DNA of 28,278 bases from Gemmatimonadota bacterium (GTDB taxonomy: Bacteria > Gemmatimonadota > Gemmatimonadetes > Gemmatimonadales > GWC2-71-9). A program made the position numbers and the translations under genes. Of the stretch, positions 7,547-25,111 are shown piece after piece; within the stretch, counting starts at the first letter, position 1; each line of letters starts with the position of its first letter. The notes under the pieces are model-generated. The model had not been told where the DNA came from. It searched no databases and saw only the letters and a program-made list of their open reading frames with translations. The stretch covers positions 1-28,278 of the forward strand of contig JBDHDE010000034.1 of assembly GCA_039591655.1 (NCBI GenBank), in the 5' to 3' direction.

Positions 7547-7828
7547 ATGGAATTCGTGGACCTGATCTGGGTCGGCGTCACCGGCGCCGCGAGCATCTTC
7601 GGCTACATCCAGTCGCGTCGCTTCGTGCGGCGCAAACTCCGCTTCGTGGACGCCGTGCAGAAGCCGGTTGCTCCGGTCGTCGCAGGCGGTACCGCAGCAC
7701 TCCTGGCAGCTCCGGTGGTGTGGTTGCTGCCGATCATCGGGGCCGGGACGGCGGTGATCTTTGGGTTGGGGATCGGCGCCGGTGTGCACCATGGCGCCAG
7801 GGACGTCAAGCGACTGCCGGGAGCCTAG
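7547..7828 (+). CDS. Small membrane protein of unknown function
   Basis: AAGGAGG SD before ATG 7547; three hydrophobic segments around a basic RRFVRRKLRFVD linker. Confidence 0.8.
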   Translation: MEFVDLIWVGVTGAASIFGYIQSRRFVRRKLRFVDAVQKPVAPVVAGGTAALLAAPVVWLLPIIGAGTAVIFGLGIGAGVHHGARDVKRLPGA

Positions 7829-7872
7829 CGAGCGGCGGGCGTGCCCCGCCGCTAATCAACTCCACAGCCTCG

Positions 7873-8433
7873 CTAACGCAGCAGTCGCCCGGTCACCCTG
7901 CGCGTGGCTCGGGCGATCACGTCCTCCTGCGGCACGAAGCCGATGAACCGGCTGTCGGGCCAGCCCAGCATGTCGCGGGTGTCTGCCAGGAGCAGCACCG
8001 AGTCGGACGGCACGATCCACGGTCCCCAAGTGAACAGGTTCCGCGTCAAGGCGAGGGCGGACCACGATGCCGCGGGCTCGAGGATCTGGTGAGGCCAAGA
8101 CTGCCGCGTGCCGTTCACCACGACCGTGCCGTCCTCCATGGCTACCGTGTCGCCCGGCAGGCCGGCTAGGCGGCGCAGCACGTGGAATACCTCCTCCTCA
8201 TCCACGAACAGGAAGATCACGAGGTCGCCGCGGTCGAGTGCGCCCGGCGGGCTCCACGCGAGGAAGTACTTCTCGGCGGCGATGGTGGGCTCCATCGAGG
8301 GACCGGTCATGTAGTAGATCGACGGCCACCGGGTGCCGAAGCGGGTGGTCCACAATACGCCGAGTACGAAGAGAGCGATGACCGCCCAGAAAGCCATCCG
8401 GATGTTGGGCCAAAGCGATCGCTGCTTCGTCAT
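7873..8433 (-). CDS. Signal peptidase I (S26) homolog with the catalytic Lys replaced
   Basis: GGGAGG SD; one TM helix; box B PSMEPT, box C RGDLVIF, box D VLRRLAGLPGD (canonically KRxxGLPGD) and box E ADTR...DSRFIG (canonically GDNR..S.DSR). Confidence 0.85.
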   Translation of the reverse strand: MTKQRSLWPNIRMAFWAVIALFVLGVLWTTRFGTRWPSIYYMTGPSMEPTIAAEKYFLAWSPPGALDRGDLVIFLFVDEEEVFHVLRRLAGLPGDTVAMEDGTVVVNGTRQSWPHQILEPAASWSALALTRNLFTWGPWIVPSDSVLLLADTRDMLGWPDSRFIGFVPQEDVIARATRRVTGRLLR

Positions 8434-8507
8434 GATTTGAATCTCCCTCCCCGTTGAGCGGCGCGCATCGCCGGTGTGATGTACCGGCTACAGCGCCTCA
8501 GCGTCAC

Positions 8508-9416
8508 TCACGCCCTGAACAAGTCGGCCAGCGCGCCGTCCAGCTTCGGAAACTGGAACTTGTATCCTGTTTCGAGAGCCCGTTGGGGGACGACACGCAG
8601 AGACCCCAGTAGCGAATCCGCCATCTCTCCCAGCATGAGACGCAGGGCGAACTCCGGCACCCGTAGCAGCGCCGGTCGGTTGAGCGCGGCCCCGAGGGCC
8701 TTGGCAAACTCGTTCACCGTCACCGGATTAGGCGCCGTGAGGTTCACCGGGCCCGGGATGTCGTTGTCGATGGCGAACAGTATGAGCCCGATCTGGTCCG
8801 CCAAGTGGATCCAGGACCACCACTGCTCGCCGGAGCCCCAGGGGCCCCCAAGCCCGAGCTTGAACAGCGGCACCAGCGGCGCCATGGCGCCGTCCTTGGG
8901 ATCGAGCACCAACCCCGTGCGAAGCAGTGTGACCTGGGTATGTGACTCGACCTCACGGGCCTCCGCCTCCCACTCGACGGCGAGTCTGGCGAGGAAGTCG
9001 TCACCGGGGGGCGTCGCTTCGTGGAGCACCTCGGCGCCTCGGTCGCCGTAGTAGCCGATGGCGGAGGCGCTGATGAGCGCGCGAGGAGCTGTTGCCGCGG
9101 CGCGGATCGCCGCGACGCACTGGCGGGTCGCCTCGGTACGGCTCTTGCTGATGAGCTGTTTGCGCGCTTCGGTCCACCGATGCGGTGGTTCGACGATGCG
9201 GTGTCCCGCGAGATTCACCACGAAGTCCGCTGAGGCGACCTCGTGATGCCAGTCTCCCGGTTCGGTAGGGTTGCCGCGGACTACACGAACCCGTTCGTGG
9301 TGCCAGGGGTCACGTCCCGCGCGGGACAACACAACGCAATCGTCACCCCGCGCAGCAAGCGCGCTCACGACACGTGAGCCGATGAATCCAGTGCCTCCGG
9401 TCAGAAAAACGCGCAA
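8508..9416 (-). CDS. TIGR01777 family NAD-dependent epimerase/oxidoreductase (YfcH-like)
   Basis: GGTGFIG Rossmann motif, VVNLAG, ASAIGYYG, LRTGLVL, GSGEQWWSWIH and GPVNLTAPNPV; TTG start. Confidence 0.92.
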   Translation of the reverse strand: MRVFLTGGTGFIGSRVVSALAARGDDCVVLSRAGRDPWHHERVRVVRGNPTEPGDWHHEVASADFVVNLAGHRIVEPPHRWTEARKQLISKSRTEATRQCVAAIRAAATAPRALISASAIGYYGDRGAEVLHEATPPGDDFLARLAVEWEAEAREVESHTQVTLLRTGLVLDPKDGAMAPLVPLFKLGLGGPWGSGEQWWSWIHLADQIGLILFAIDNDIPGPVNLTAPNPVTVNEFAKALGAALNRPALLRVPEFALRLMLGEMADSLLGSLRVVPQRALETGYKFQFPKLDGALADLFRA

Positions 9417-9593
9417 TCGTAAGTCCTTGAGAGTGCTGACACTACGCGAGTGCTGTAATGCCGCGACTTCCCAATGGTCGTTTCGGCCACTAGCTTGAAA
9501 GTTAGCAAACGCTAACGGAAATCACATACGCGAGGCAAGGCTACAGCATACGACGGAATGCAGTACCCAACCCGAGCTCCTATAGGAGGGGCA

Positions 9594-10781
9594 ATGAAGG
9601 TTCGCTACATCACCCGCCTATCGAAGCTCGACGGCCTCACCGAGGAAGAGCGTCGTCGATTGGAGCCCGTAGCCGAGCGCTACGTATTCCGGCTCAACGA
9701 TTACTACAGCCACCTCATCGACTGGGATGATCCCAACGATCCGCTGCGACGGCTGGTCGTGCCGCTGGAAAGCGAGCTGAACGACTGGGGGGAGCTGGAT
9801 GCGAGCAACGAGGCGAGCTACACGCCGGTGCGCGGGTGCCAGCACAAGTACACCGACACGGCGCTGCTCCTGGTGAATGAGGTCTGTGGCGCGTACTGCC
9901 GCTATTGCTTCCGCAAGCGGCTGTTCATGAACGACAACGACGACGCCACCCTAGACTACAAACCGGGTCTGCGCTATATCGCCGAGCACGAGGAGATCAC
10001 CAACGTGCTGCTTACCGGCGGTGATCCCATGATCATGTCGACGCGCCGGCTTGAGCCCGTCATCAGTGACGTCGCAGCGATCCCGCACGTGCGGATCATC
10101 CGCATCGGCAGCAAGATGGCGGCGTTCAACCCGTACCGGGTACTGGACGACCCTGATCTGTTGCGGTTGATCAGGGAGCACTGCAATACGAAGACGCAAA
10201 TCTACATCATGAACCATTTCGATCACCCCCGCGAGCTCACCCCCGAGGCGCGGGAGGCGGTCAGCCGGCTGCGGCAGGCCGGCGCGCAGACGGTCAACCA
10301 GTGCCCCATCGTGCGAGGTGTGAACGACCGACCGCAGACGTTCGCCGGACTGTTCCGCGAGTTGTCCTTCATGGGCTGCCCGCAGTACTACGTTTTTCAG
10401 GGACGCCCCGTGGCAGGGAACGAGGCGTACGAAGTGCCCATCCTCGAGGGACTCCACATCGTCATGGAAGCGAACCGGCACCTCTCAGGCCTGGCGAAGC
10501 GGGCACGGTTCGCCATGTCGCACCGCACGGGCAAGATCGAGATCCTTGGCGCCGACGACCGGCACCTCTTCATGCGCTACCACCGGGCGCACAAGAAGGA
10601 AGACTACGGGCAGATCATCGTGGCGAAGCGGGACGATCGGGCGTACTGGCTCGACCAGCTAACGGTGATCTCGGGTCCCGAGTCGGCGGTGCAGTCGGCG
10701 GCCCATTATGCGCCGTACGACTGGCAGGACGAGGCCGCGGAGCGGCGACTGGATCGTGAGGTGCGTTGGCGGAGACGGTAG
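9594..10781 (+). CDS. KamA-family radical SAM/PLP aminomutase-like protein, substrate uncertain
   Basis: AGGAGG SD before ATG 9594; NDPLRRLVVP, HKY, CGAYCRYCFR (CxxxCxxC), LLTGGDP, NHFDHPREL, NQCPIVRGVND and a GK motif at the PLP-lysine position. Confidence 0.9.
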   Translation: MKVRYITRLSKLDGLTEEERRRLEPVAERYVFRLNDYYSHLIDWDDPNDPLRRLVVPLESELNDWGELDASNEASYTPVRGCQHKYTDTALLLVNEVCGAYCRYCFRKRLFMNDNDDATLDYKPGLRYIAEHEEITNVLLTGGDPMIMSTRRLEPVISDVAAIPHVRIIRIGSKMAAFNPYRVLDDPDLLRLIREHCNTKTQIYIMNHFDHPRELTPEAREAVSRLRQAGAQTVNQCPIVRGVNDRPQTFAGLFRELSFMGCPQYYVFQGRPVAGNEAYEVPILEGLHIVMEANRHLSGLAKRARFAMSHRTGKIEILGADDRHLFMRYHRAHKKEDYGQIIVAKRDDRAYWLDQLTVISGPESAVQSAAHYAPYDWQDEAAERRLDREVRWRRR

Positions 10782-10807
10782 CGCGCTGGCGCGTAGTGAG
10801 GCTGTCG

Positions 10808-10835
10808 CATCGGCCGCGGTTCGCCGCGGCCGATG
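10808..10835. terminator. Hairpin between convergent genes, probable terminator
   Basis: 12-bp perfect stem CATCGGCCGCGG-ttcg-CCGCGGCCGATG. Confidence 0.65.
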
Positions 10836-10886
10836 GCGTTTCAGCGAGTGGTGTGGTCGGAGCGGGGAGCTCCGGCCCACGGAGCG

Positions 10887-13082
10887 TTAGGAATCGGGGT
10901 CGGCACTCACCTGCACCCGCGCATCGATGGCCACGGCTCCCTGCTCCAGCGAGATGAGCGGGTTGATGTCCATCTCCTCGATGCGCGGATGACGTTGCGC
11001 GAGTTGGGAGATGCGGAGGATCGCGTCGGCGAGCGCTCCTAGATCGCGAGGCGACTGCCCCCGCACGCCTTCGAGGAGCTGATACAACTTCACGTCGTGG
11101 ATCATCTCTTCGGCGTCCACATCATGCAGCGGGCTGAGGCGCAGCACGACGTCTCGCAGGGCCTCGACGTAAATGCCGCCCATGCCAAACATCACCAGCG
11201 GTCCCACGCGGGGCACCCGCGTGAGCCCCACGATCGTCTCGAGCCCGCCACCCGCCATCTGCTGGACGAATATCCCTTCGATACGAGGCGCAGGCTCCGC
11301 GGGCTTGGTGGTGGCCTTGCCCTTCTTCTTCCGCGCCGTCTTGCTGCTCGCCCCCTCGTTCCCGGTCGTGACCCGTTTGACCATATCGCGCACCGCGCGC
11401 TCGACCTCCGTCTTGCTATCCAATCCAAGGGCCACCCCGCCCACATCGGTCTTATGGGTGATGTCCGGTGAGACGACCTTGAGGGCTACGGGGAAGTCGA
11501 GATCGACGGCGGCCTCGGCGGCGGAGGTGGCCAGCGCTCCCGGACCGTCCTTCGACACGAAACGCCACGGCAGTACCGGAATCCCGTACGCCTCCAGGAC
11601 GCGCATCGCATCGGGTTCGCTCAGCTTGGCGTGACCCTGTTCGAGGGTCTGGTCCACGATGCGTTCCACGGCGGCGTCGTCGGTCTTGAACTTCATTACC
11701 TGGCCCGCCCGGCGGTTCTGGATGCGGCGGTAGCGCCACATGGCCCCCAGGGCGCGCGCCGCCGACTCGGGAAAGATGTACGCCGGGATGCTGGCGTCGT
11801 GCAGCTCGGCCAGTCCGGCCGGCAGGCCCTCGCGTCCCATCAGCACGGCGAGCAGCGGCTTTTCGGGATGCCGCTCGTTGACGCGCACGATAGCCGCGGC
11901 TACGTCCCGCGTCTGGATACCTAGCGGAGGGACAAAGGCCGCGATCGCTGCGTCCACGTTGGGGTCGTCGAATACGCATTGCAGCGCGAACTCGTAGTTC
12001 TCGGCGCTCGCGCTCGCGATCAGATCCACCGGGTTCTTGACGCTCGCCTCCTCCGGCAGACGCGTGCGCAGGAGATCCTCCGTCTCGGGCGCGAGGTGCA
12101 CCACACTGAGCCCGTTGGCCTCGCAGGCGTCGGCCGCCATGATGCCCGGGCCACCCGCGTTGGTCACGATGGCCACCCGATTGCCGGAGGGCAGCGGCTG
12201 GTTGGCGAACGACATCGCCAGGTCGAACAGATCCTCGACGGTCTCGGCGCGCAGGGCGCCAGCCTGCGCGATGAGCGCGTTGGTGGCCAGTTCCGTGCCC
12301 CCCAGGGCGCCGGTGTGCGAGGCAGCCGCGCGAGCCCCGGCGCCGGTGCGACCCGATTTCACCACGCAGATTGGCTTGTGCCTGGTCATCTCGCGGCCGA
12401 TCTCGACGAACTTCCGGGGGTTGCCGAAGCTCTCGAGGTACATCAGCACGACCTGCGTGTTGGGGTCGTCGCGCCAGTACTCGAGGACGTCGTTACCGCT
12501 CACGTCGGCCTTGTTCCCGCTGGAGACGAACATTGAGATGCCGATGTTGAGACTCTCGGCGTAGTCGAGGATGCTGGCGCCCATCGCACCTGACTGGCTC
12601 ACGAACCCCACGGGGCCCACGGGCGGCCGCGCAGGCGCGAAGGTGGCGTTCATCGCGAACGCGGGGTCGTTGTTGATCACCCCGAGGCAGTTGGGGCCCA
12701 CCATGGGCACGCCCGCTTGCTTCACGATCTCGAGCAGCTCCCGTTCGCGCTCGACGCCCTCGCCGCCGACCTCCCTAAAGCCCGCTGAGATCACGACGAG
12801 CCCCTTCACGCCTCTGTCGACGCACTGCTGGGTGACCTCCGCGACGTACGCGCCCGGCACGACGATTACCGCCAGGTCCACCGACTCTGGCACCTCGGCG
12901 ATCGAGGGATAGGCCGGCATCGAGTGGATGGCGGAGGCCTTCGGATTGACTGGGTACACCGGGCCGGTGAAGCCGACACGGAGCAGGTTGTCCAGGATCT
13001 GCCAGCCGATCGTGTGCTTCTGGCGTGAAGCGCCGATGACGGCGATGGAGCGGGGTCGGAGGATGGGGTCGAGGCTCGGCAT
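10887..13082 (-). CDS. ADP-forming acetate/acyl-CoA ligase family protein (fused alpha-beta subunits)
   Basis: CoA-binding PRSIAVIGAS, GPNCLG, SQSGA, GNKADV, phospho-His motif ASHTG, TNAGGPG, NPVDL and ATP-grasp HKTDVGGV...EMDINPL. There is no GNAT domain. Confidence 0.93.
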   Translation of the reverse strand: MPSLDPILRPRSIAVIGASRQKHTIGWQILDNLLRVGFTGPVYPVNPKASAIHSMPAYPSIAEVPESVDLAVIVVPGAYVAEVTQQCVDRGVKGLVVISAGFREVGGEGVERERELLEIVKQAGVPMVGPNCLGVINNDPAFAMNATFAPARPPVGPVGFVSQSGAMGASILDYAESLNIGISMFVSSGNKADVSGNDVLEYWRDDPNTQVVLMYLESFGNPRKFVEIGREMTRHKPICVVKSGRTGAGARAAASHTGALGGTELATNALIAQAGALRAETVEDLFDLAMSFANQPLPSGNRVAIVTNAGGPGIMAADACEANGLSVVHLAPETEDLLRTRLPEEASVKNPVDLIASASAENYEFALQCVFDDPNVDAAIAAFVPPLGIQTRDVAAAIVRVNERHPEKPLLAVLMGREGLPAGLAELHDASIPAYIFPESAARALGAMWRYRRIQNRRAGQVMKFKTDDAAVERIVDQTLEQGHAKLSEPDAMRVLEAYGIPVLPWRFVSKDGPGALATSAAEAAVDLDFPVALKVVSPDITHKTDVGGVALGLDSKTEVERAVRDMVKRVTTGNEGASSKTARKKKGKATTKPAEPAPRIEGIFVQQMAGGGLETIVGLTRVPRVGPLVMFGMGGIYVEALRDVVLRLSPLHDVDAEEMIHDVKLYQLLEGVRGQSPRDLGALADAILRISQLAQRHPRIEEMDINPLISLEQGAVAIDARVQVSADPDS

Positions 13083-13208
13083 GGGACTAAGATAATCGGT
13101 CGCCTCGCTTCAACTGACGTTCGCTCCGGCAGCCCCCTCCCGCTCGCTCCCACCCGTTTGTCGCGGAAAGCCTGGACATCCGTCCAGCGATTCGGGAATA
13201 TTGGGGCA

Positions 13209-13727
13209 ATGCTCCCCCTCCTCAAACTCCTACAGTCCATGGTCCGGGCGCTCCACTCCGAGGGGACGCCCGAGCAGGTGGCGGCGGGAATCGCGCTGGG
13301 CGCGGCCCTGGGCCTCACCCCCCTGATGAGCCTCCACAACCTGCTCGTCGTGGCGGCCATCGCATTGCTCAGGGTGTCGGTGCCAGGGGCGATCCTCGGC
13401 TGGCTGGCGGCGATCCCCGCAGGCTTCCTGCTCGACCCGCTGTTCGATACGGTGGGGGGCGCCCTCCTGCTTGACGCGCGCCCCTTGGAGCCCGCCTGGA
13501 CCGGGGCGTACAACACTCCGGTGGTGTCCCTGGCCCACTTCAACAACTCCGTCGTGTTGGGGAGCCTGGTGGGCTGGATGGTGCTGGCTGCCCCCATTTA
13601 CCTCGCCGCGCGCTGGGGAGTGTCGCGCTATCGGGCGACAGTGCACCCCCGGGTGGTGCAATGGAGGGTGGTCAAGACGGTGCGGGCCTCGAAGCTGTAC
13701 AACCTCTACCGGTTGTTCCGGCCCTGA
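13209..13727 (+). CDS. TIGR03546 family (DUF2062-like) membrane protein
   Basis: LHSEGTPEQVAAGIALG, HNLL, DPLFDTVG and YNTP...FNNSVVLGSL motifs; hydrophobic; paired with the downstream gene. Confidence 0.85.
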   Translation: MLPLLKLLQSMVRALHSEGTPEQVAAGIALGAALGLTPLMSLHNLLVVAAIALLRVSVPGAILGWLAAIPAGFLLDPLFDTVGGALLLDARPLEPAWTGAYNTPVVSLAHFNNSVVLGSLVGWMVLAAPIYLAARWGVSRYRATVHPRVVQWRVVKTVRASKLYNLYRLFRP

Positions 13728-15583
13728 TGGCGCGCCGTAGGGTCTTCCGCTGGCGGGCCATCGTGCCACTGCTGGTCTTCCTCACGCTGCTGGTGCTTGT
13801 CTGGTTGCTGCTGCTCGATCGCCTGGCGGAGCGGGGCATCGAGGCGGCGGCGACCCACCTGGTAGGGGCGCGGGTGGACCTGGCGGAGGCCGATGTGAGG
13901 CTGCGGCAGGGAGCCGTGATACTCCGCGGCCTCGAGGTGACGAACCCCGACGAGCCAATGACCAACCTGTTCGAGGCCGAGGAGATCGTCGCAGACCTGC
14001 GGGTGCTGCCGCTCCTCGAGCAGAAGTTGGCCCTCGACACGGTCGCCGTGAGGGGACTCGAGTTCGGCACCGAGCGCGAGACCTCCGGGGCAGTGGTGGA
14101 GCGGAGCCCCGAGAGCGCCAGGGTGGCGAGGCAGGTCTCGGCCTGGGCCGACGCTTTGCGCTTCCCGTCGTTCAGCCTCGAGGGGCTGGGGCAGGCGGTC
14201 GATGTTGGGGCGCTGAGTCCGGAGAGCCTCCAGGCGGTCGCCCGCGCCGAGGCGCTCGTGGAGCAGGTGGATGCGGTGCGCTCGGGTTGGGACCGGACCC
14301 TGCGGTCTCTCGATCCGCAACCGACGATCGACTCCGCTCGCGCGCTGGTGACGCAACTGCGGCAGGCCGACCTGGGCCGACTGGGACCTGTGGGCGTCGC
14401 CCGTCTGGTGAGCTCCACCCGCACGACGATCAACTCGGTGGGCGAGCTACAGCAGCGTGTGGAATCCCTCGACGACATGGCCCGCTCCGATGTGGCGGAG
14501 CTGCAGGGCGCCCTGCGAGGCCTCTCGGCGGCGCGGGAAGCCGATTACGCATACGCACGGAGCCTGCTCCAGCTTCCCTCCCTGGAGGCGCCGGACATCT
14601 CCCCGGCGCTGTTCGGCGAAGCGGCCGTGGGGTGGATCAAGCCCGTGCTCTACTGGCTCGGAATGGCGGAGCAGTTCCTACCACCCGGCCTCCAGCCCAG
14701 GAGGTTCGCCCCGTCCGGACGCACCCGCCGGGCCGGAACCACCGTGACGTTCCCCAAGGAGGGCGAGCGCCCTGGTTTCCTGTTGGAGCACGGGGAGGCC
14801 TCTCTCGAGCTGGGCGGCGAGGGAATCGAAGCCGGACGCTACCTGGCTGTGGTCAGTGGCCTCACGTCGGCGCCTTCCCTCTACGGCAAGCCCCTCCGGT
14901 TCTTGATCGAGCGCACCGGTGCGGCGGTGGGACCCGGCGACATCGGGGTCGACGTGTTGCTGGATCACGTCACGACGCCGGTACGGGACTCGGTCCAGGC
15001 GCGCCTGGGCGGCATCGAGCTGTCGGCCCTCGAGCTGCCATCGCTGGGAGCCAGGCTGCTCCCGGGCCAGGGTACGATGAGCCTCTCCCTCGAGCGTGTG
15101 GGAGACGCCCTTGCCGGGCGGTGGGTGTGGCGCTCGGCGCGTGTCACATGGGAGAGGATGGGAAGTGGGAGCGGGGAAGGGGAAAGGGAGGCGGCGCAGG
15201 TCGGGAGCGGTGCATGGGCCGAGGACTTTCTCTGGCGTACGGTCTCCGCCATCCGGGACGTCGAGGTGGCCGTGGAGCTCTCCGGCACGGTGGACGGCCC
15301 CTCGCTGGCGGTGCGCTCCAACGTGGGCGATGCGGTGGCGCAGAGCCTGCGCCGCGAGCTGGGGCGCGAGATCGCGCGGGCCGAGGAGCGAGTGCGGGCA
15401 CAGGTGGATGCCCTGGTGGGGGACGGGGTGGCGCGGGCCCGCGCCGGCGTCCGAGAGCTGCAAGGCACGTTGCTGGAGGACATCGGCGGCCCGTTGGGCG
15501 CCCTGGAAGGCGTGCGGCAAGAGCTCGAGCGCGAGGTGGAGCGGCTCGGCCGCCGACTCCCCGGCGGCATCCGGATTCCTTAG
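13727..15583 (+). CDS. TIGR03545 family protein (N-terminal anchor, AsmA-like start)
   Basis: The ATG overlaps the upstream TGA (TGATG). N-terminal TM helix, then VGARVDL...LRGLEVTNPDEPMTNLF and FGTERETSGA, coiled-coil segments and a C-terminal L.VRSNVG motif. Confidence 0.8.
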   Translation: MARRRVFRWRAIVPLLVFLTLLVLVWLLLLDRLAERGIEAAATHLVGARVDLAEADVRLRQGAVILRGLEVTNPDEPMTNLFEAEEIVADLRVLPLLEQKLALDTVAVRGLEFGTERETSGAVVERSPESARVARQVSAWADALRFPSFSLEGLGQAVDVGALSPESLQAVARAEALVEQVDAVRSGWDRTLRSLDPQPTIDSARALVTQLRQADLGRLGPVGVARLVSSTRTTINSVGELQQRVESLDDMARSDVAELQGALRGLSAAREADYAYARSLLQLPSLEAPDISPALFGEAAVGWIKPVLYWLGMAEQFLPPGLQPRRFAPSGRTRRAGTTVTFPKEGERPGFLLEHGEASLELGGEGIEAGRYLAVVSGLTSAPSLYGKPLRFLIERTGAAVGPGDIGVDVLLDHVTTPVRDSVQARLGGIELSALELPSLGARLLPGQGTMSLSLERVGDALAGRWVWRSARVTWERMGSGSGEGEREAAQVGSGAWAEDFLWRTVSAIRDVEVAVELSGTVDGPSLAVRSNVGDAVAQSLRRELGREIARAEERVRAQVDALVGDGVARARAGVRELQGTLLEDIGGPLGALEGVRQELEREVERLGRRLPGGIRIP

Positions 15584-15589
15584 CTTGGG

Positions 15590-18500
15590 ATGGATGAGGA
15601 CCGACCCGACCAGATGACCACCATCCCCGACCTGCAGGATCTCTCCGGGCTTTCCCCGGAGGAGGTGACGGCCCGCGTCGCCGGCGCTCTCGAGGAGGCG
15701 GCGCGCGCGCCCACCTCGGAGGAGTCGCTCCGGCTCGACCGCGCGACGGTGCAGGCACTTCGCGCCTCGCGGCACGTGAGGAGGGTGGTGGAGCACCTCG
15801 AGCCGCGCCACTTGGCGGACCTGCTGGAGCGCTGCGTGGCGCGACTCGAGGCGGGGGGTGAGTCGCGGGATAGCGACCTGCGGGTGCTGACATGGGACAC
15901 CCTGGACCTGGTGCGCCGTCGCGAGGTGCTGCGCCGCATCGAGCGGGCAGCGGTTCCCGAATGGGCGGACCGCCTCCTGCGGGCGGTGGATTCCTCGGAC
16001 CTGACGGTGGGACCTCTGTTTCGGCAGCGCGCAGCGACCTACGGGGCCAAGATCCTGTTCGAGATCCCCGAGGCCGGGGGAAGCCGCCGAATCACATGGG
16101 AGCAGGCGGCACGGCAGGTGGATACGCTGGCCAGGGGCCTGCTGGCCCTCGACGGTCCGGAGCGCACGGCCCCCGTCGCCATCCTGTCCGAGAACCGCAT
16201 CGAGATGGCGCTCCTGGATCTGGCGTGTCTCACGTCGGGGATTCAGAACGCGATGGTGCCGGCCAACTCCACGGAGGCGGACGTGGGCTACATCCTGCGT
16301 CATGCCGCGGTGGGAACGGTCGTCGTGTCGGATCGGAGGCAGCTCCACAAGGTGCAGAAGAACCACGGGGAGTTGCCCGACCTCAGACGCATCGTGGTGA
16401 TGGAGGCGCTGGAGGCGCCCGGGCCCGATGTGATGACACTGGAGGACGTCGCTGCCGGGGCCGCGCAGGTATCTAGCGAGACGGTGCGGCAGCGGTCGGA
16501 GGCGGTGCGGGTGGGCGACCTGGCGACGCTCATGTACACCTCCGGCACCACCGGGATGCCCAAGGGCATCGCCTTCTCACAGCGCAACCTCGTGTTCAAG
16601 CGGTTCGCCCGGGCCCTCGCCCTGCCGGAGCTTGGCGAGGGGGATGTCTTCCTCTCGTACCTCCCGCTGTTCCACACCTTCGGCCGGTACTTGGAGATGC
16701 TGGGATGCGTCTTCTGGGGCGCGAAGTACTGCTTCTTGCTGAACCCGTCGGTCGAGGCGCTGGTGGAAGGCATGCGGCGCTACCGGCCCTCGGTCTTCAT
16801 CAGCGTGCCGCGCAAATGGATGCAGCTGTACGAGGCCGTCGGGCAGCGGGCCGACCCTCTACAGGCGAGCGATGAGGAGCTGCTGGCGGTCACCCGGGAC
16901 CTGACGGGCGGACGGCTACGCTGGGGCCTGTCGGCTGCCGGGTACCTGGATCCCGAGATCTTTCGGTTCTTCTACCGACAGGGGGTACAGCTCCTCAGCG
17001 GCTTCGGCATGAGTGAGGCCACTGGCGGGGTCACAATGACGCCGCCGCACGGGTACAAGGACAACTCCCTCGGCGTGGCCCTGCCGGGCATCGACATCGA
17101 GCTCGCCGACGACGGGGAGCTGCTGCTCCGTGGACCGTACGTGATGCTGGGATACCACGATCCGCCCGATGGGGAGCCGTCCTTCGACGAGGACGGCTGG
17201 CTGCATAGCGGCGACCTGATGCGAATGGACGAGGACGGACACATCCAGTTGGTGGATCGCAAAAAGGAGATCTACAAGAACATCAAGGGGCAGACGATCG
17301 CCCCTCAGCGGATCGAGAACCTGTTCCGAGAGTTCGAGTCGGTGGGGCGGGCGTTCCTGGTGGGCGACCACCGGGAGTACAACACGCTCCTCGTGTATCC
17401 CAACCCGGACTACAAAGACCAGGACTTCGCAACCATGTCGCCCCAGGAGGTTTGGGACCATTTTCGGTCCCTCGTCACGTCGGTCAACAAGTTCGTGGCG
17501 CCGTTCGAGCGCATCGTGGACTTCGCCGTCATCGATCGCGACCTGGATGACGACCGCGGTGAGCTCACCCCCAAGGGCACGCCGCGCCGCAAGGTGGTCG
17601 TCGAGAACTTTGCCGACGTCATCTCCTCGCTGTACCGCCGGACCCACGCGACCGTGGGTGGCGTGGAGCTGACGCTCCCCAACTGGCTGTTCCAGATCCT
17701 GGGACTCACCGCCCAGGACGCCGCCATCGACCGGGACCGGATCACGCTGCCCATCGGGCCGACTCTCACGGTGCGGCGTCTGGAAGGGTCGCGGGTGCGC
17801 GTCGGCTCGTGCACGTACACCATTCCCGGGGAGACGCTCGACCTGGGCGCCATCCTGGCCACGCCGCGTCTCTGGCTCGGAAACGACGAGCTCGTCGACT
17901 TCGCCCCCCTCGACATGGGTGCGCGCCAGCGACCGGGGCGGTCGCAGGCCGGGATCGAGTGGGCCGGACGCGCGGAGCCGTATGCGCCCACCGCCGACGA
18001 CGGAGAGCACCTCAACGAGGCGCTGCGGCACAGCGAGTGGGATCTGCTCGATCTCCACCGGACCGCCAGGTTGCTCGCCTCCACGGAGGAGGATGCGGCG
18101 CTGAGCGCCGTGCGGCTCCTGGAGCGCGTCATTGGCTCAGAGGACGGTCCCCTCATCGACCCCGCGCGCCACCTCCTGGCCCGGGGTGCCCGGGTCGAGT
18201 CGGCGGAGGTGCGGCGCCGTGCTTTCCTCACGCTGGTTCCGAGCGAGCGGGCCTCGCGCTTCGCCGCCACACTGAAGCGGTTCTTCGCCAGCGATCCGCT
18301 GCTCCTGGACACCGAGACGTCGGAGCTGCTGTGCGAGCGCAGTCTACCCGACGCGAAGCTCGAGGCGTTCATCGGGCTGGCGGAGAGCGCCTGCTCGAAC
18401 GGCGCCGGTGGCAATCAGGCCGACCAGCTCGCTCTCTCACTGTTGAGCTTCCTGGCCGAGTATGGAGCGGCCCATCCCATACGCTACCGGCGGATCCGAG

Positions 18501-20377
18501 CCTTCCTGGTGCGCATGAGTCTGTTTGCGCTGGGCCAGGCGACGCGGGTCCATGCGGCGGGGGCGCGCGTCACCCTGGAGAACGGCTTCCGCCAGTGGCT
18601 CGGGCCCACGTCCAAGATCGCCGTCGACACCGAGACGGGGCAGGAGTATCGCTGGGAGGACGTGGTGGTGTTCGAGGAGTCCATGCCCGACGACCACCAG
18701 CGCCGCTTGCTCTCGGCCATCAAGAGCACGCCGTTCCTCCGAGAAGCCGTGTTCCTCTTCTACCGCGGGACGGTGATCCGGCTGAACGACATCCCGCCCG
18801 GGGGGGTGTGGATCCGGCTGCTCGGTGCGCGGCACGGCAAGTCGGTGTACCGCATCACGATCCAGACGCGCACACAGGACACCTACGACGTAGCGGCGAA
18901 CCTCATTGAAGAGCTCCCCGCCGAGCAGGTGCAGGAGGAGATCGACTGGCTCATCCTGTGCGGCGAAGCCGCCAGCCGCGCACCCGTGGTGGAGGACTTC
19001 GGGGGGCACATCCCGGAGCAACACCTGTGGAGCGAGGAATTCGTTACCGGCGATACGCTGGATCGCGAGCTGCGGCGGCTCCAGCGCCGGTCGCCGGAGC
19101 AAGAGGGCCTGCGGCAGATCTGGCCGTTCCTGGCCTGGAGCGCTCTCTCGGCCTACGTGGACTTCTGGGATCGGACGGGACGCCGCTGTGAGATCGCCGC
19201 GCTGGACCCTGCCGACATCGTGGTCCCGACACACGATTACCACACTGGCTCCCGTATCGTGTCGCTCTCGTCGCGGCGGTCCCATGGCGGGCTGTTGGCC
19301 ATGGTGCGCGCGTTCAGGGAGGGGTTCGTCGACGCAGTTGAGGAAGCGCATCCGGACGTGAAGGGGCTCGTGGGGTGGGATGTAGTCTTCTCCGCGGTGC
19401 TGGAGGTCGTTGGTGAGCAAGCGGGGCTGGCGGCGTATGAGCAGGCCCTCGCTGCCGAGACGTCCATCCCGCAGGACCTGCGGAACGCCCTCGGGGAGTA
19501 CCTGTTCACCGTCCGGCGCAGAGGGTTCCTCCCGCGGCGGCTCTACTTTGCGGGCAAGCGCTATCGCCGGTGGGCCAAGCTGAATGCCGATGCCACACCG
19601 CAGGCCCGGGCGGCGACGCTGCAGGAGTTGTACGAGACCTACGGCCTCGACCGTCTCTCGAAGGTCCACCCGGAGGTGCGGCTCCGCTTCTTCCGGGAGA
19701 CGGTGTTCCGCAGCAGCTCCAACGAGCTGCAGCACGGCCTAGACGAGTTGATCGCCCGCGTTCGGAGCGGTGAGCTGCGCAACGGTGATCTTGCCACGGC
19801 GATCGCCGACTTGCGGCAGCGGCTCGACGTGGGCGAGGACGACGACTACTTCCTGGCCCGTATCCCATTCGCCCACCTGCGGCCCGAGGATGCAGTGGGG
19901 TTCGTGTCAGCTGACTCGGGGGCCGGCTCCCAGAGCGAGATCGTGGTGGCCCTCGAGGACAGCGACGCCAATCTGTTCCGGGTGCGGCACGCCCTGGTGC
20001 CCAAGGAGGTCGAGCGGTTGCACCGGCTCTTCCTCTCCGCCCGGCTCGAGGTTCGGTTCGGGCCCGAGCACCGCTACCTGGTTGGGATCAATGAGCGTGA
20101 CCAGATCATCGGGGGCATCTACTACGAGATCGCGGAGGGCGGTCGGCGGGCGCACCTGGAGAAGATTGTGGTCGCCGCGGGGTATCGTCGCAAGGGTGTG
20201 GCGGAGGGGCTCATGAACGACTTTTTCAACCGCCTGCGGGCCGCCGGCGTGAAGCGCGTGACCACCGGGTTCTTCCGCCCCGAGTACTTCTACGCCCACG
20301 GCTTCAGGATCGAGAAGCGCTACGCCGGGCTGGTGAAGTCCCTCGAGGAGGAAGCGGAGGAGGCCGAGCCGGCCTGA
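15590..20377 (+). CDS. 1595-aa multidomain protein: long-chain acyl-CoA ligase (AMP-binding), helical region, kinase-like domain and GNAT acyltransferase
   Basis: Adenylation motifs YTSGTTGMPKG, YLPLFHTFGR, SVPRKW, GFGMSEATG, GWLHSGD and DRKKEI; C-terminal GNAT motif HLEKIVVAAGYRRKGVAEGLM...YFYAHGF. It starts 6 nt after the upstream stop. Confidence 0.9.
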   Translation: MDEDRPDQMTTIPDLQDLSGLSPEEVTARVAGALEEAARAPTSEESLRLDRATVQALRASRHVRRVVEHLEPRHLADLLERCVARLEAGGESRDSDLRVLTWDTLDLVRRREVLRRIERAAVPEWADRLLRAVDSSDLTVGPLFRQRAATYGAKILFEIPEAGGSRRITWEQAARQVDTLARGLLALDGPERTAPVAILSENRIEMALLDLACLTSGIQNAMVPANSTEADVGYILRHAAVGTVVVSDRRQLHKVQKNHGELPDLRRIVVMEALEAPGPDVMTLEDVAAGAAQVSSETVRQRSEAVRVGDLATLMYTSGTTGMPKGIAFSQRNLVFKRFARALALPELGEGDVFLSYLPLFHTFGRYLEMLGCVFWGAKYCFLLNPSVEALVEGMRRYRPSVFISVPRKWMQLYEAVGQRADPLQASDEELLAVTRDLTGGRLRWGLSAAGYLDPEIFRFFYRQGVQLLSGFGMSEATGGVTMTPPHGYKDNSLGVALPGIDIELADDGELLLRGPYVMLGYHDPPDGEPSFDEDGWLHSGDLMRMDEDGHIQLVDRKKEIYKNIKGQTIAPQRIENLFREFESVGRAFLVGDHREYNTLLVYPNPDYKDQDFATMSPQEVWDHFRSLVTSVNKFVAPFERIVDFAVIDRDLDDDRGELTPKGTPRRKVVVENFADVISSLYRRTHATVGGVELTLPNWLFQILGLTAQDAAIDRDRITLPIGPTLTVRRLEGSRVRVGSCTYTIPGETLDLGAILATPRLWLGNDELVDFAPLDMGARQRPGRSQAGIEWAGRAEPYAPTADDGEHLNEALRHSEWDLLDLHRTARLLASTEEDAALSAVRLLERVIGSEDGPLIDPARHLLARGARVESAEVRRRAFLTLVPSERASRFAATLKRFFASDPLLLDTETSELLCERSLPDAKLEAFIGLAESACSNGAGGNQADQLALSLLSFLAEYGAAHPIRYRRIRAFLVRMSLFALGQATRVHAAGARVTLENGFRQWLGPTSKIAVDTETGQEYRWEDVVVFEESMPDDHQRRLLSAIKSTPFLREAVFLFYRGTVIRLNDIPPGGVWIRLLGARHGKSVYRITIQTRTQDTYDVAANLIEELPAEQVQEEIDWLILCGEAASRAPVVEDFGGHIPEQHLWSEEFVTGDTLDRELRRLQRRSPEQEGLRQIWPFLAWSALSAYVDFWDRTGRRCEIAALDPADIVVPTHDYHTGSRIVSLSSRRSHGGLLAMVRAFREGFVDAVEEAHPDVKGLVGWDVVFSAVLEVVGEQAGLAAYEQALAAETSIPQDLRNALGEYLFTVRRRGFLPRRLYFAGKRYRRWAKLNADATPQARAATLQELYETYGLDRLSKVHPEVRLRFFRETVFRSSSNELQHGLDELIARVRSGELRNGDLATAIADLRQRLDVGEDDDYFLARIPFAHLRPEDAVGFVSADSGAGSQSEIVVALEDSDANLFRVRHALVPKEVERLHRLFLSARLEVRFGPEHRYLVGINERDQIIGGIYYEIAEGGRRAHLEKIVVAAGYRRKGVAEGLMNDFFNRLRAAGVKRVTTGFFRPEYFYAHGFRIEKRYAGLVKSLEEEAEEAEPA

Positions 20378-20479: not shown

Positions 20480-21814
20480 CTACTTCTTGGTGGTACCCGC
20501 CAGCTCTGCCGCCGAGACGCCCGCCACTTCCTCCAGCATCGTCGTCGTGACGGACTTGGGCCGCTCGATCGGATAGCCGAGGGCGCGGTCCCAGGTAATG
20601 TTGGCCAGCACGCCGATGGCGCGCCCGATGCCGAACAGCACAGTGTAGAAGTCCCACTCGGTGAGGCCGTAGTACCACTGGATGACGCCGGACTGGGCGT
20701 CCACATTGGGCCACGGGTTCTTGGCCTTCCCCTGCTCCTGGAGGATGTCCGGAGTCACCTTGTAGATCGTGCTGATCAGCTTGAACAGCGGGTAGTCCGG
20801 CAGGTGCTTGAGGCAGAACTCCCGCTGCGACGTGTAGCGCGGGTCGGTCTTCCGCAGCACGGCGTGGCCGTAGCCGGGAATGACCTGGCCGCTGTTCAGG
20901 GTGTCCCACAGCGCCTGCTTCACGTCGTCCTCGGTGTAGTCCTCCTTGCCGAGCTTCTCCATGAAGTTCTGCGTCCAGCGCAACACCTCCTGGTTGGCCA
21001 GACCGTGCAGCGGACCGGCCAGACCGTTGATGCCCGCAGACAGCGAGTAGTAGCAGTCCGACAGTGCGGACGCCACGAGGTGGGTGGTGTGTGCCGAGAC
21101 GTTGCCCGACTCGTGGTCCGAGTGGAGGATGAAGTACATCCGTGCCACGTCGTCGTACGGTGGGTCGATGCCCATCTGGTGCGCGAAGTTACCGCCGAAG
21201 TCGAGCTTCTTGTCCGCGGCGATCTGTTTGCCGCCCTTGTACTTCATGCGATAGATGTACGCGCCGATGGAGGGGAGCCTCGCGAGGAGATTGCTGCAGT
21301 CCTCGTACACCGGGTCCCAGTACTCCATCTTGTTCATGCCCGCGTTGTACCGCTTGACGAACTCGGACTCCCGCTGCATCGCCAGGATGGCCATCGAGAA
21401 CAGCGCCATCGGGTGGCTGTCCTTCGGCATCTTCTCCAGCACGTCGAACACGTACTTGGGTACCTCGCGGCGTTTCTGGAAGTCCTTGACCACCTCCAGC
21501 GCCTGCTTCTCCGTGGGCACTTCGGCCGTGAGAAGGAAGTACCAGAAGGCCTCGACGTACGGGTAGTCGGACTTGGGCGCCTTGGGCAGCGCCTCGAAGG
21601 TCTCCGGGATCGTCTTGCCGCGGAACCGGATGCCCTCGAACGGATCGAGGTACGAGATGTCGGTCACCATCATCTTGACGCCGCGGGCGCCGCCGATGGC
21701 CTGGCCGATGGTCACCTCGCCCACCTTGACGTCGCCGTACTCCTTGAGCAGCCGCGTGGTGCGCGGGCGATGCTGCTCGATCTTCTTATGCAGGGTTTCT
21801 TTGAGCGTCGACAT
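20480..21814 (-). CDS. gltA: Citrate (Si)-synthase, eukaryote-like type
   Basis: GGARG, LDPFEGIRFRG, HSDHESGNVSAH, LAGPLHGLANQEVL, PGYGHAVLRKTDPR, NPWPNVDAQSG and IERPKS; GAGGA SD. Confidence 0.96.
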   Translation of the reverse strand: MSTLKETLHKKIEQHRPRTTRLLKEYGDVKVGEVTIGQAIGGARGVKMMVTDISYLDPFEGIRFRGKTIPETFEALPKAPKSDYPYVEAFWYFLLTAEVPTEKQALEVVKDFQKRREVPKYVFDVLEKMPKDSHPMALFSMAILAMQRESEFVKRYNAGMNKMEYWDPVYEDCSNLLARLPSIGAYIYRMKYKGGKQIAADKKLDFGGNFAHQMGIDPPYDDVARMYFILHSDHESGNVSAHTTHLVASALSDCYYSLSAGINGLAGPLHGLANQEVLRWTQNFMEKLGKEDYTEDDVKQALWDTLNSGQVIPGYGHAVLRKTDPRYTSQREFCLKHLPDYPLFKLISTIYKVTPDILQEQGKAKNPWPNVDAQSGVIQWYYGLTEWDFYTVLFGIGRAIGVLANITWDRALGYPIERPKSVTTTMLEEVAGVSAAELAGTTKK

Positions 21815-23173: not shown

Positions 23174-25111
23174 TCACTCGGCGTTGCGGATGGCGTCCAT
23201 CGCGTCGGGGTTCTGGACCGATGAGAGGTCGCCCGGCTCGCGTCCGAGATAGGTGTCCCGCACCAGGCGCCGCAGGATCTTGGCGCCGCTGGTCTTAGGC
23301 AGGTCCGCCACGAAGAGGACCTTATCGGGCCGGTCGACTCTGCCGAGGCGGCCCACCACCGCGTTGACTAGCTCCTCCCGTAGCTTATCGGACGGAGCGT
23401 GGCCCTCCTGTGGCACCACGAAGCAGACGATGGCCTCGCCCTTCACGTCGTGGGGTACTCCCACGGCCGCCGCTTGCGCCACCTTCCCTCCGGCCATCAA
23501 GGCGCTCTCCACCTCCGCCGGACCGATCCGGCGGCCCGCGACCTTGAGCGTATCGTCGGCCCGGCCCTCGAGGAACCAGTAACCGTCCTCGTCGATGCGC
23601 GCCCAGTCACCGTGGTTCCACACGTCCTTCCAGGTGGACCAGTAGCTCTCCAGGTATCGGTCGGCGTCGTTCCACAGGCCTCGAGTCATGGACGGAGCCG
23701 GCTTGGTGGCCACGAGGTACCCGACCTCGTTGCGCACCGACTCCCCCTTCTCGTTCCACACGTCCACGGCCATCCCCAGACCCGGGCCCACGAGACTGCA
23801 CGGCTTGAGCGGTTGAGTCGGGAGAGGTGACAGGAAGCACCCGATGATGTCCGTCCCACCGGAGATGTTGATGATGGGGCAGCGGCTGTCCCCTACGTGC
23901 TCGAAGAACCAGTACCACGAGGCCTCGTCCCACGGTTCCCCGGTGGAGCCGAGAATGCGCAGATGCGAGAGGTCGTGACGGCGCACGAGCTCGGCGCCCG
24001 AGCGCATGGCTACACGGATCGCGGTGGGGGAGATCCCGAAGACAGACACGCGGTGGCGCTCCAGGAATGACCAGAGGCGATCGCGCTCCGGCCAGTCCCA
24101 GGCCCCGTCGTACAGCATGACCGTGGCGCCGTGGAACAGGCCGCCCAGGATCGTCCAGGGGCCCATCATCCAGCCGATATCCGTCAGCCAGAAGAAACGA
24201 TCCTCCGGCTTCAGGTCGAACGCATATCCCGTCTCCTTGGCGATCTGCACCAGGGCGCCGGCGTGGCTGTGCACGGTGCCCTTGGGACGGCCGGAGGTAC
24301 CGGACGTGTAGAGGATGAGGGCGGGGTCCATGGACGCCATCATCTCCGTGTCCGTGCCGTCGGACGATCCCGAGGCGAGGAACTCGGGCCAGGCCACGTC
24401 CCGCTCGTGCCGCCACACGATGTCGTCGTCCGTGTAGCGCGCCACCACCATCTGGGTGACGCTCGGGACCTCCGCCACCGCCGCGTCCGCGTTGCCCTTG
24501 ATGGGCACCGTCTGGCCGTTTCGTATCGAGCCGTCGGCGGTGAAGAGCAGCTTGGCCCCCGCGTCCCGCAGACGCTCCGCCACGGCTGCCGGGGCGTATT
24601 CGCTGACGATCGGAATGAAGATGGCGCCGATCTTGAGGGTGGCCAGGAGCTGCACCACCACCTCGGCGGTCATCGGCATGTACGCCGCGACCCGGTCCCC
24701 ATGCGCGATGCCTCGCCTCCGCAGGGCCGAGGCGCAGCGGTCCACATGCTGGGCCAACTCCCGGAAGGTGAGTTGGGTGAGGTGGCCGTCCTCCCGCTCG
24801 GCGATCAGGCAGACCGCGTCCCCCCGCGGCCCTCCTGCGTGCCGGTCGAGGCAGTTGGCCGCGATGTTGAGCCGGCCTCCGACGTACCACTCTGTCCACG
24901 GGGCCCCCCGGCTCGCGTCGAACACCGCGCCGTACGGGTGGGCGAACCGGATTCCCAGGTCCTCCACCACGGCATCCCAGAACCACTCCGGCTCGGCGGC
25001 GGAGCGCTCGACGAGCGCCTGCACGTCGTCCATACCGTGCCTGCGCATGAAGCGGGTCACGTTTGCCGCAGCGGTGAGCTCGGGCGTTGGACGCCAGGCG
25101 AAATCGGACAT
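23174..25111 (-). CDS. AMP-forming short-chain acyl-CoA synthetase (Acs/acetoacetyl-CoA synthetase-like)
   Basis: GGRLNIAANCLDRH, YTSGTSGRPKG, DIGWMMG, NISGGTD, WNHGD, GRADD, GRRIGPAEVE and PKTSGAKILRR. Confidence 0.92.
   Translation of the reverse strand: MSDFAWRPTPELTAAANVTRFMRRHGMDDVQALVERSAAEPEWFWDAVVEDLGIRFAHPYGAVFDASRGAPWTEWYVGGRLNIAANCLDRHAGGPRGDAVCLIAEREDGHLTQLTFRELAQHVDRCASALRRRGIAHGDRVAAYMPMTAEVVVQLLATLKIGAIFIPIVSEYAPAAVAERLRDAGAKLLFTADGSIRNGQTVPIKGNADAAVAEVPSVTQMVVARYTDDDIVWRHERDVAWPEFLASGSSDGTDTEMMASMDPALILYTSGTSGRPKGTVHSHAGALVQIAKETGYAFDLKPEDRFFWLTDIGWMMGPWTILGGLFHGATVMLYDGAWDWPERDRLWSFLERHRVSVFGISPTAIRVAMRSGAELVRRHDLSHLRILGSTGEPWDEASWYWFFEHVGDSRCPIINISGGTDIIGCFLSPLPTQPLKPCSLVGPGLGMAVDVWNEKGESVRNEVGYLVATKPAPSMTRGLWNDADRYLESYWSTWKDVWNHGDWARIDEDGYWFLEGRADDTLKVAGRRIGPAEVESALMAGGKVAQAAAVGVPHDVKGEAIVCFVVPQEGHAPSDKLREELVNAVVGRLGRVDRPDKVLFVADLPKTSGAKILRRLVRDTYLGREPGDLSSVQNPDAMDAIRNAE

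Follow-up and report, generated by a model that had tools for sequence, protein, structure and literature searches.

The locus and its giant gene

The window is a 28,278-nucleotide (nt) stretch of DNA, positions 1 to 28,278 of the forward strand of contig JBDHDE010000034.1, from a Gemmatimonadota bacterium (assembly GCA_039591655.1). It contains a giant gene that fuses an AMP-forming acyl-CoA ligase-like domain to a C-terminal acetyltransferase domain of the GNAT family. An earlier note on this DNA, made from the sequence alone, had read it as one uninterrupted frame of 1595 codons, and this reading holds: counted from the first ATG, a single open reading frame (ORF) runs from 15590 to 20377 on the + strand. 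Translation probably begins at the ninth codon (Met9, nt 15614), since methionine occupies that column in 99 of 106 close homologues, compared with 3 of 106 at Met1. The same note had named misassembly as a reason to discard the fusion. In public run X2, one contig spans the entire gene with 13 substitutions and zero gaps, and the tables of four runs, all from a single study that is possibly the window's source, record no indel or joint within it. The ORF is real, and misassembly can be discounted. Its features are as follows.

15590..20377, + strand: giant gene, 1595 codons (1587 amino acids if Met9 is the start)
15590..16006, + strand: N-terminal extension, residues 1-139, the least conserved part of the giant
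16019..17641, + strand: adenylation (ANL) domain of the ACSL/FadD15 type, residues 144-684, with P-loop, A4 His362, A5 Glu476, A7 Asp542 and A8 Arg557/Gly567 intact
16598..16612, + strand: family-specific basic triad K337, R338 and R341 in the helix after the P-loop, each present in 60/60 diverse homologues
17561..17590, + strand: variant A10 loop, with Thr664 in place of the catalytic Lys and a conserved Lys662 two residues earlier
17657..17989, + strand: small beta-rich domain, residues 690-800, from the secondary structure of the model
17993..18601, + strand: helical-repeat (HEAT-like) arm, residues 802-1004, from the model
18677..19564, + strand: protein-kinase-like fold, predicted pseudokinase, residues ~1030-1325, from the model and fold searches
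19565..19984, + strand: helical subdomain and beta-hairpin leading to the GNAT, from the model; ratio of nonsynonymous to synonymous substitution rates (dN/dS) 0.185
19985..20344, + strand: Gcn5-like GNAT, with motif A (R1533-x-x-G1536-x-A1538) and acidic beta4 residue E1524

Domain layout and distribution of the family

Pfam recognizes both ends of the protein, with AMP-binding at residues 144-523 (E 1e-64), AMP-binding_C_3 at 565-684 and GNAT at 1489-1559 (E 2e-8). It finds nothing from the C-terminal ligase subdomain to the GNAT, and no kinase family appears at E<=0.1. The N-terminal extension has no match in an NCBIfam scan; 3 of its 139 columns are at least 85% conserved among 60 diverse homologues, and its dN/dS is 0.48. 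Across the ten Gemmatimonadota giant genes from which dN/dS was calculated, all domains are under purifying selection, the values being rough, with dS near 0.9-1.0.

Hundreds of relatives share this layout, the most distant at about 20% identity. When residues 690-1595 served as the query, 463 proteins matched at E<=0.001 among 7987 candidates scored, and most of the 120 matches listed are 1500-1610 residues long with the same Pfam set. Similarly, residues 690-1470 gave 351 matches against representatives at 50% identity, the 150 listed reaching down to 20% identity. Thirty of these representatives were scanned by Pfam; the ligase was found in 29 and a GNAT match in 29, the two exceptions being proteins that are short at the N-terminus in one case and at the C-terminus in the other. 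According to record titles and source names, the family occurs in Gemmatimonadota, Acidobacteriota and Calditrichota, and partial proteins extend it to Ignavibacteria, Marinimicrobia, Anaeromyxobacteraceae, Bacteroidales, Planctomycetes and others, mostly uncultured bacteria. Its occurrence is patchy, with the giant present in 12 of 61 relatives, 7 of 151 genomes in the phylum, 37 of 71 Calditrichota and 14 of 201 Acidobacteriota (three candidates scored per genome).

The earlier note would also have given up the fusion if homologues were consistently split into separate genes, and no recurring split or stand-alone form was found. Among the best 120 of 161 shorter C-terminal matches, the 119 left after dropping the window's own fragment start at scattered positions between residues 615 and 1280; the starts do not cluster at the ligase boundary, and no unrelated domain precedes the giant's own sequence. 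Of 2055 shorter ligase matches, the best 120 likewise have scattered ends, and those that pass residue 685 continue with beta-domain sequence or with tails that look like frameshifts. Judged by these ends and by the lack of foreign domains, the shorter matches behave as fragments. In a FastTree phylogeny of 79 rows, the ligase domains of the giants form one side of a 100% branch, with two ordinary ACSLs on the other, and the other domains show distances correlated with the ligase distances (rho 0.5-0.8).

A ligase domain with a displaced lysine and a basic triad

The ligase is the most conserved part of the giant, with 128 of 550 columns at least 85% conserved in the 60 diverse homologues, compared with 9 of 125 for the GNAT. 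It has the AMP-binding fold of ANL enzymes, with P-loop (A3), A5 Glu, A7 Asp and A8 Arg and Gly; the P-loop, His362, Glu476, Asp542, Arg557, Lys563 and Gly567 are each kept in 59-60 of the 60. Five residues are described as invariant across 374 ANL enzymes, the A10 lysine among them (PMC6122825). By motif mapping, four of the five (E476, G515, D542 and R557) are present in 60/60 homologues, and the A10 lysine is absent. The A10 loop aligns without gaps to that of the genome's own ACSL, so that the lysine of that ACSL pairs with Thr664 and one of its threonines with Lys662. Position 664 is Thr or Ser in 106/106 close homologues, 58/60 diverse homologues and 134/135 loci, and position 662 is Lys in 106/106, 59/60 and 133/135, respectively. 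Loss of the A10 lysine reduces FadD13 activity by 96% and CBL efficiency 500-fold (PMC6122825), and regulatory acetylation usually targets this lysine (PMC8388817).

The second departure is the basic triad. The residues K337, R338 and R341 align with H204, S205 and A208 of the Thermus thermophilus long-chain ligase 1ULT. We take H204 to line the fatty-acid tunnel of 1ULT. The genome's ordinary ligases are uncharged at the first two triad positions, its own ACSL reading N-V-x-x-A/L. Because the triad is invariant where long-chain ligases carry uncharged residues, we infer that it points to an anionic ligand.

Long-chain ligase models score below their cut-offs (FadD11, the best, with 233 bits against 950; PRK06187 with 188 against 476), and the genome carries a separate canonical ACSL, to which the giant's C-terminal subdomain is 35% identical. 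By sequence, then, the giant's ligase is not an ordinary long-chain enzyme. The label “long-chain-type” given in the earlier note is correct as to ancestry and fails at two active-site features, the A10 loop and the triad. The fatty-acid ligand that it envisaged is probably not the right one, given the lost A10 lysine, the basic triad and the link to citrate synthase, aconitase and isocitrate dehydrogenase described below.

A fatty-acyl version of the system, in which the ACSL domain produces or detects long-chain acyl-CoA, the GNAT attaches fatty acyl groups to proteins or lipids, and citrate synthase is a target because acyl-CoA signals carbon supply, seems quite unlikely to us. The ligase's closest models are indeed FadD11 and other long-chain ligases, all below cut-off; a FadR-like TetR gene (also below cut-off) lies beside 5 of 20 Calditrichota giants, and a YihG-type acyltransferase beside the giant of genome G147. 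However, this version has to contend with an invariant K-R-x-x-R where long-chain ligases are uncharged and with the separate canonical ACSL, and the only recurring beta-oxidation neighbours are a thiolase/3-hydroxyacyl-CoA dehydrogenase pair at 3 of 80 loci.

The GNAT domain

The GNAT and its RRKGVA CoA-binding motif, both recognized in the earlier note, are well founded: the motif occupies residues 1533-1538 (nt 20186-20203), inside the Pfam match, and agrees with the motif A consensus R/Q-x-x-G-x-G/A (PMC8556138). Among the 60 diverse homologues, G1536 is kept in 54 and an acid (D/E) on beta4 in 56. Lys1525 on beta4 is lysine in only 26/60, so beta4 shows no basic residue, shared across the family, that could suit an anionic donor. 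Among solved structures, the best sequence match is Tetrahymena Gcn5, a weak match (E 0.004) in which the catalytic beta4 Glu of Gcn5 aligns to His1522, two residues from E1524. Within the ten Gemmatimonadota genes, dN/dS is lowest in the GNAT (0.11, compared with 0.19 for both the ligase and the kinase fold). Over long distances, the GNAT is less conserved than the ligase, and its sequence differs between subfamilies. The genome also contains a SIR2-family gene (G000:C17:18952-19491), and an ORF on contig C26 has an HDAC-like motif, a motif match only.

The main alternative to the sensing mechanism preferred below, feeding and sensing both having been raised in the earlier note, is a self-feeding acylation machine. 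In it, an active ligase that uses Lys662 as the substitute lysine would convert a TCA-type (tricarboxylic acid cycle) acid such as citrate to its CoA ester or adenylate, and the GNAT would transfer this unusual acyl group to protein lysines. The shift of the lysine would, in addition, remove the ligase from the motif that GNATs acetylate to switch such ligases off, the A10 lysine being their usual target (PMC8388817). The ligase is the most constrained domain, its catalytic residues and Lys662 are nearly invariant, and both the basic triad and the citrate-gene links suit such a substrate. We nevertheless regard the idea as somewhat unlikely: we found no precedent for catalysis with a shifted lysine, the GNAT varies between subfamilies and has no family-wide basic beta4 residue, and passing on a diffusible CoA ester needs no scaffold of 780 residues.

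The middle region and its predicted pseudokinase

The AlphaFold model of residues 690-1470, built from an 85-row alignment (pLDDT 92, pTM 0.86), runs from a small beta domain through a helical-repeat arm and a bilobal domain to further helices and a beta-hairpin. Fold searches gave no assignment for the beta domain (690-800), which they barely tested. The arm reaches Z 9.7-9.8 to the Rtt103 CID and to a chain of the PP2A complex, values that are unspecific for helical bundles. Its HEAT signals are weak: HEAT clusters score 0.76 in the ESM Atlas, where all matches stay under 0.9 and serve as leads only, and HEAT_2 appears at E 3e-4 in 1 of 30 homologues.

The bilobal domain has a protein kinase fold in the predicted model. 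Foldseek with the middle-region model returned kinases, including Rio1 and Vps34/PI3K, at E about 1e-4. VIA-align gave Z 11.2 for Rio1 (root-mean-square deviation, rmsd, 5.5; 208 residues aligned) and 11.1 for PRPK, and a comparison with 48,161 representatives gave Z 11.4 for Bud32 (rmsd 4.0; 215 aligned) and 11.1 each for Rio1 and homoserine kinase. The residues of an active kinase are missing from the giant, which carries Asn1104 for the beta3 Lys, Ala1204 for the catalytic Asp and Ser1225 for the DFG Asp, as mapped by motif spacing on the secondary structure of the model and not by a printed structural alignment. Position 1204 is D or E in 98/106 close homologues and variable in diverse ones, and the alphaC Glu is present in 104/106; the beta3 Lys and DFG Asp are absent from all columns examined in close and diverse homologues alike. 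Only 8 of 235 columns of the kinase fold are conserved at 85% in the 60 diverse proteins. The domain is therefore best described as a predicted pseudokinase. The kinase-like segment of the earlier note thus stands by fold and not by sequence, and it is longer than proposed, covering residues ~1030-1325 (nt 18680-19560). Its suggested role as a “regulatory hub” can, with no catalytic motifs, mean only a scaffold or an allosteric relay.

It is very unlikely, in our judgement, that the kinase fold is instead an active atypical phosphotransferase, or that the GNAT is a mere CoA-binding sensor that controls the ligase, with the signal flowing in reverse. The D/E at position 1204 and the alphaC Glu of the close homologues would suit an active kinase, as the much stronger long-range conservation of the ligase would suit reversed flow. 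Against the former stand the absent beta3 Lys and DFG Asp, Ala1204 in this giant and the few conserved kinase columns, and against the latter the GNAT's dN/dS, the lowest in the near clade.

A recurrent link to citrate-cycle genes

Downstream, the giant faces the following gene.

20480..21814, - strand: eukaryote-type citrate (Si)-synthase, convergent neighbour (PRK09569 above cut-off)

This gene is the sole citrate synthase match in the genome. A eukaryote-type citrate synthase lies within 10 kb downstream of the giant in 36 of 55 related loci (24 convergent, 12 co-directional), and some of the remaining 19 stop at a contig edge. Among 61 relatives, giant and eukaryote-type synthase occur in the same 12 genomes and in no others, which corresponds to about two events (the negatives include unpublished genome G023). 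The phylum sample shows the same pattern, with this synthase in 7/7 giant-bearing and 14/144 giant-lacking genomes; the seven include G147, whose distant giant (26%) lies on a different contig from the synthase. For Acidobacteriota, the corresponding counts are 13/14 and 54/187. The eukaryote-type synthase is itself common (21/151 genomes in the phylum, 56/71 in Calditrichota and 67/201 in Acidobacteriota) and, from its sequences, appears to have moved between phyla.

The giant-adjacent synthases belong to three clades, as judged from 12 of 21 rows tested together with 20 others (the approximately unbiased (AU) test rejects monophyly, p 3e-44), and the giants beside them all fall in one. These trees suggest that the pairing was re-made after synthase replacement; repeated export of just the synthase is also compatible with them.

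A distant subfamily is linked to other enzymes of the same node. An aconitase gene adjoins the giant in 15 of 80 loci, with isocitrate dehydrogenase on the other side in 10 and a bacterial-type (PRK14032-type) citrate synthase at 7 of the 15; the nine aconitase loci placed in the tree form one clade and thus count as one event. Rarer neighbours are a DASS transporter (1 locus), a succinate CoA transferase (1) and phosphoenolpyruvate (PEP) carboxykinase (3). The genomic link looks like one to the citrate node and not to a single family of proteins. That the giant depends on the eukaryote-type synthase in particular can be rejected, as it is accompanied by other synthase types too. At locus L116, the distant giant is flanked upstream by a homocitrate-synthase-like gene (1709-3046, below cut-off) and also by a gene at 7710-12671 whose 1654-aa product carries a PEP-synthase/PPDK nucleotide-binding domain at its C-terminus.

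The variety of these enzymes could also indicate the biosynthesis of a small N-acyl amide, for instance an N-citryl amine or amino acid, with the ligase activating the acid, the GNAT condensing it with an amine and citrate synthase supplying the precursor. Three kinds of citrate- or homocitrate-making enzyme nearby point to a metabolite and not to one protein surface, and the citrate synthase shows no co-adaptation (see below). Even so, no transporter, tailoring or amine-supply gene recurs around the 135 loci, the GNAT's best solved relative is a protein acetyltransferase (a weak match), and the large scaffold would go unexplained. We consider this proposal improbable.

Comparison with known acetyltransferases and ligases

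Bacterial protein acetyltransferases have been sorted into five types (PMC11254643, PMC8556138). The giant resembles the type I enzymes Salmonella Pat and E. coli PatZ/YfiQ, which are also big proteins, in which an N-terminal domain resembling acyl-CoA synthetases but short of one catalytic residue is combined with a GNAT at the C-terminus (PMC8556138, PMC11254643). In Pat/PatZ, the synthetase domain, inactive for want of that residue, binds acetyl-CoA and regulates the GNAT (PMC8556138). The Pat domain, however, is an unrelated NDP-forming synthetase, whereas the giant's is an AMP-forming ANL domain, and the giant adds a HEAT-like arm and a kinase fold, with ~1590 residues compared with ~900. 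A Pfam scan of the giant gave no match to CoA_binding, Succ_CoA_lig or ATP-grasp_5, domains that the same scan finds in the neighbouring gene 10887-13082.

Type III GNATs (MtPat cAMP-GNAT, ACT-GNAT and NADP-GNAT) offer a second parallel, in that a ligand-binding domain at the N-terminus is proposed to gate a C-terminal GNAT. Their sensor is a cNMP, ACT or Rossmann domain of 300-400 residues, whereas that of the giant would be a ligase followed by a 780-residue scaffold; Pfam scans of the giant and 30 homologues found no cNMP, ACT or NADP-binding N-terminal domain. With the ACSL/FadD15/FadD11 synthetases (PF00501 plus PF23562), the giant shares the fold, motifs A3-A8 and the family of the C-terminal subdomain. 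It differs in the replaced A10 Lys, the Lys two residues earlier and the K-R-x-x-R motif, scores below all NCBIfam cut-offs, and has its ligase fused, a stand-alone form never having been found in the searches made.

In AcuA-AcsA and Pat-Acs pairs, a GNAT is likewise physically partnered with an AMP-forming ligase (PMC11255334), but there the ligase is a separate protein and a target acetylated on its A10 lysine, whereas the giant's ligase lies in the same chain and has lost that lysine. Finally, Bud32/PRPK, Rio1, homoserine kinase and APH share the bilobal fold (Z 11, ~205-215 residues aligned); the giant's version is 9-15% identical to them, lacks the catalytic Lys and metal-binding Asp, and is set between a helical arm and a GNAT.

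Full-text searches of a literature collection without most subscription journals, made for the giant fusion and for AMP-forming citrate ligases, yielded no published description, in keeping with the earlier note, which did not recognize the architecture as characterized and would have given up its reading on a match to a characterized enzyme. As far as PMC11254643 and PMC8556138 describe the five types, none has an AMP-forming ligase or a kinase fold.

A proposed gated acetyltransferase at the citrate node

We propose, with a probability of about 0.4, that the giant is a metabolite-gated protein lysine acetyltransferase at the entry of the TCA cycle, whose ligase domain senses a citrate-like acid together with ATP or AMP. 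The literature searches gave no published account of such control. The ligase-like domain would bind ATP or AMP and, through K337/R338/R341, a polyanionic acid, the most likely candidates being citrate, a related di- or tricarboxylate, or the CoA ester of such an acid. Because the canonical A10 lysine is lost, turnover may be slow or nil, and domain rotation would report ligand levels. The beta domain, helical arm and degenerate kinase fold would relay this state and may dock target proteins. The GNAT would then move acetyl from acetyl-CoA onto lysines of TCA-entry enzymes, a modification that the sirtuin encoded in the genome could undo. Gating is suggested by the parallel with Pat/PatZ, whose synthetase domain, short of one catalytic residue, regulates its GNAT. 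Read in this way, the giant would work like a type I or III acetyltransferase, yet it lacks the domains that define those types. What is observed directly is the domain architecture, the altered motifs, the purifying selection on all domains, a kinase-type fold in the model and the recurring link to citrate enzymes.

Several points weigh against this proposal. On the enzyme side, the ligase is the most conserved part and keeps its CoA-tunnel glycine, which fits an active enzyme equally well; the near-invariant Lys662 could replace the lost A10 lysine; and the triad is placed at the acyl tunnel through a sequence alignment in which H204 of 1ULT is taken as a tunnel residue. On the genomic side, the contrast is weak in Calditrichota (synthase in 31/37 giant-bearing and 25/34 giant-lacking genomes), and related genomes in the co-occurrence counts are not independent. 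No citrate synthase, aconitase or isocitrate dehydrogenase adjoins the giant in 65 of 80 distant-subfamily loci, or in 20 of 20 Calditrichota loci, where flanks of 1.5 kb only were covered. Most genomes with a eukaryote-type synthase carry no giant; the giant-bearing G415, G257 and G258 have other synthase types only, and G190, G199, G208, G209 and G221 show no synthase with the queries used. The convergent FadR-like gene of 5/20 Calditrichota loci (best model Bacillus FadR) belongs here as well. Moreover, no residue separates the synthases of 41 giant-bearing from those of 40 giant-lacking sources (largest frequency gap 0.43), so the presumed target shows no sign of co-adaptation, and citrate synthase as a co-adapted target was set aside.

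If the giant is indeed a gated acetyltransferase, its architecture would be a sixth one among bacterial protein acetyltransferases, with an origin independent of Pat, and enzymatic lysine acylation would be connected with the citrate node in several phyla that have received little study. The family is also of interest for a natural ANL domain that lacks a residue regarded as invariant and for a predicted bacterial pseudokinase inside a metabolic enzyme. Should the ligase feed the GNAT with a tricarboxylate, the product would be a new post-translational modification. In the boldest form of this idea, a one-chain, ATP-driven “citrylation”, the ligase with its relocated lysine and K-R-x-x-R pocket would convert citrate or a closely related tricarboxylate to its CoA ester, and the pseudokinase scaffold would direct the Gcn5-like domain to attach it to lysines of TCA enzymes. 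We hold this form of the idea to be unlikely; if true, citrate synthase would be under direct feedback from its product in many bacterial phyla.

Other neighbours

A promoter and terminator scan gave nothing above chance worth citing. Directly upstream of the giant lies an uncharacterized gene pair.

13158..15583, + strand: TIGR03546 and TIGR03545 genes, ending 6 nt before the giant's first ATG

This pair is kept only in the near clade (13-14 of 56 loci). Further upstream, the window contains a KamA-family radical SAM gene (9558-10781, + strand), syntenic in ~10 near loci, and an ADP-forming acetate-CoA-ligase-like gene with no GNAT (10887-13082, - strand), found in the same place in 14/55 related loci. 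Together with the citrate synthase and an AMP-forming acetyl-CoA-synthetase-like gene (23174-25111, - strand), the latter surrounds the giant. As a core of the family, TIGR03545/03546, the ADP-forming ligase, KamA and TerC were rejected, being local synteny only (10-15 of 56 loci).

The FadR-like TetR genes of the Calditrichota loci are located as follows.

L073:5091-5678
L075:605-1219
L077:5091-5729
L078:5111-5719
L079:5097-5687

Elsewhere in Calditrichota, a macrodomain gene (O-acetyl-ADP-ribose deacetylase-like, L066:844-1458) lies directly 3' of a giant. The gene that converges on the distant giant of G147 encodes a YihG-type lysophosphatidate acyltransferase (L058:4970-5977). In Acidobacteriota, a glucose-1-phosphate adenylyltransferase lookalike, recognized by eye, lies upstream of the giant at four loci (L038:6005-7276, L042:5902-7287, L051:5986-7266 and L053:3579-4838).

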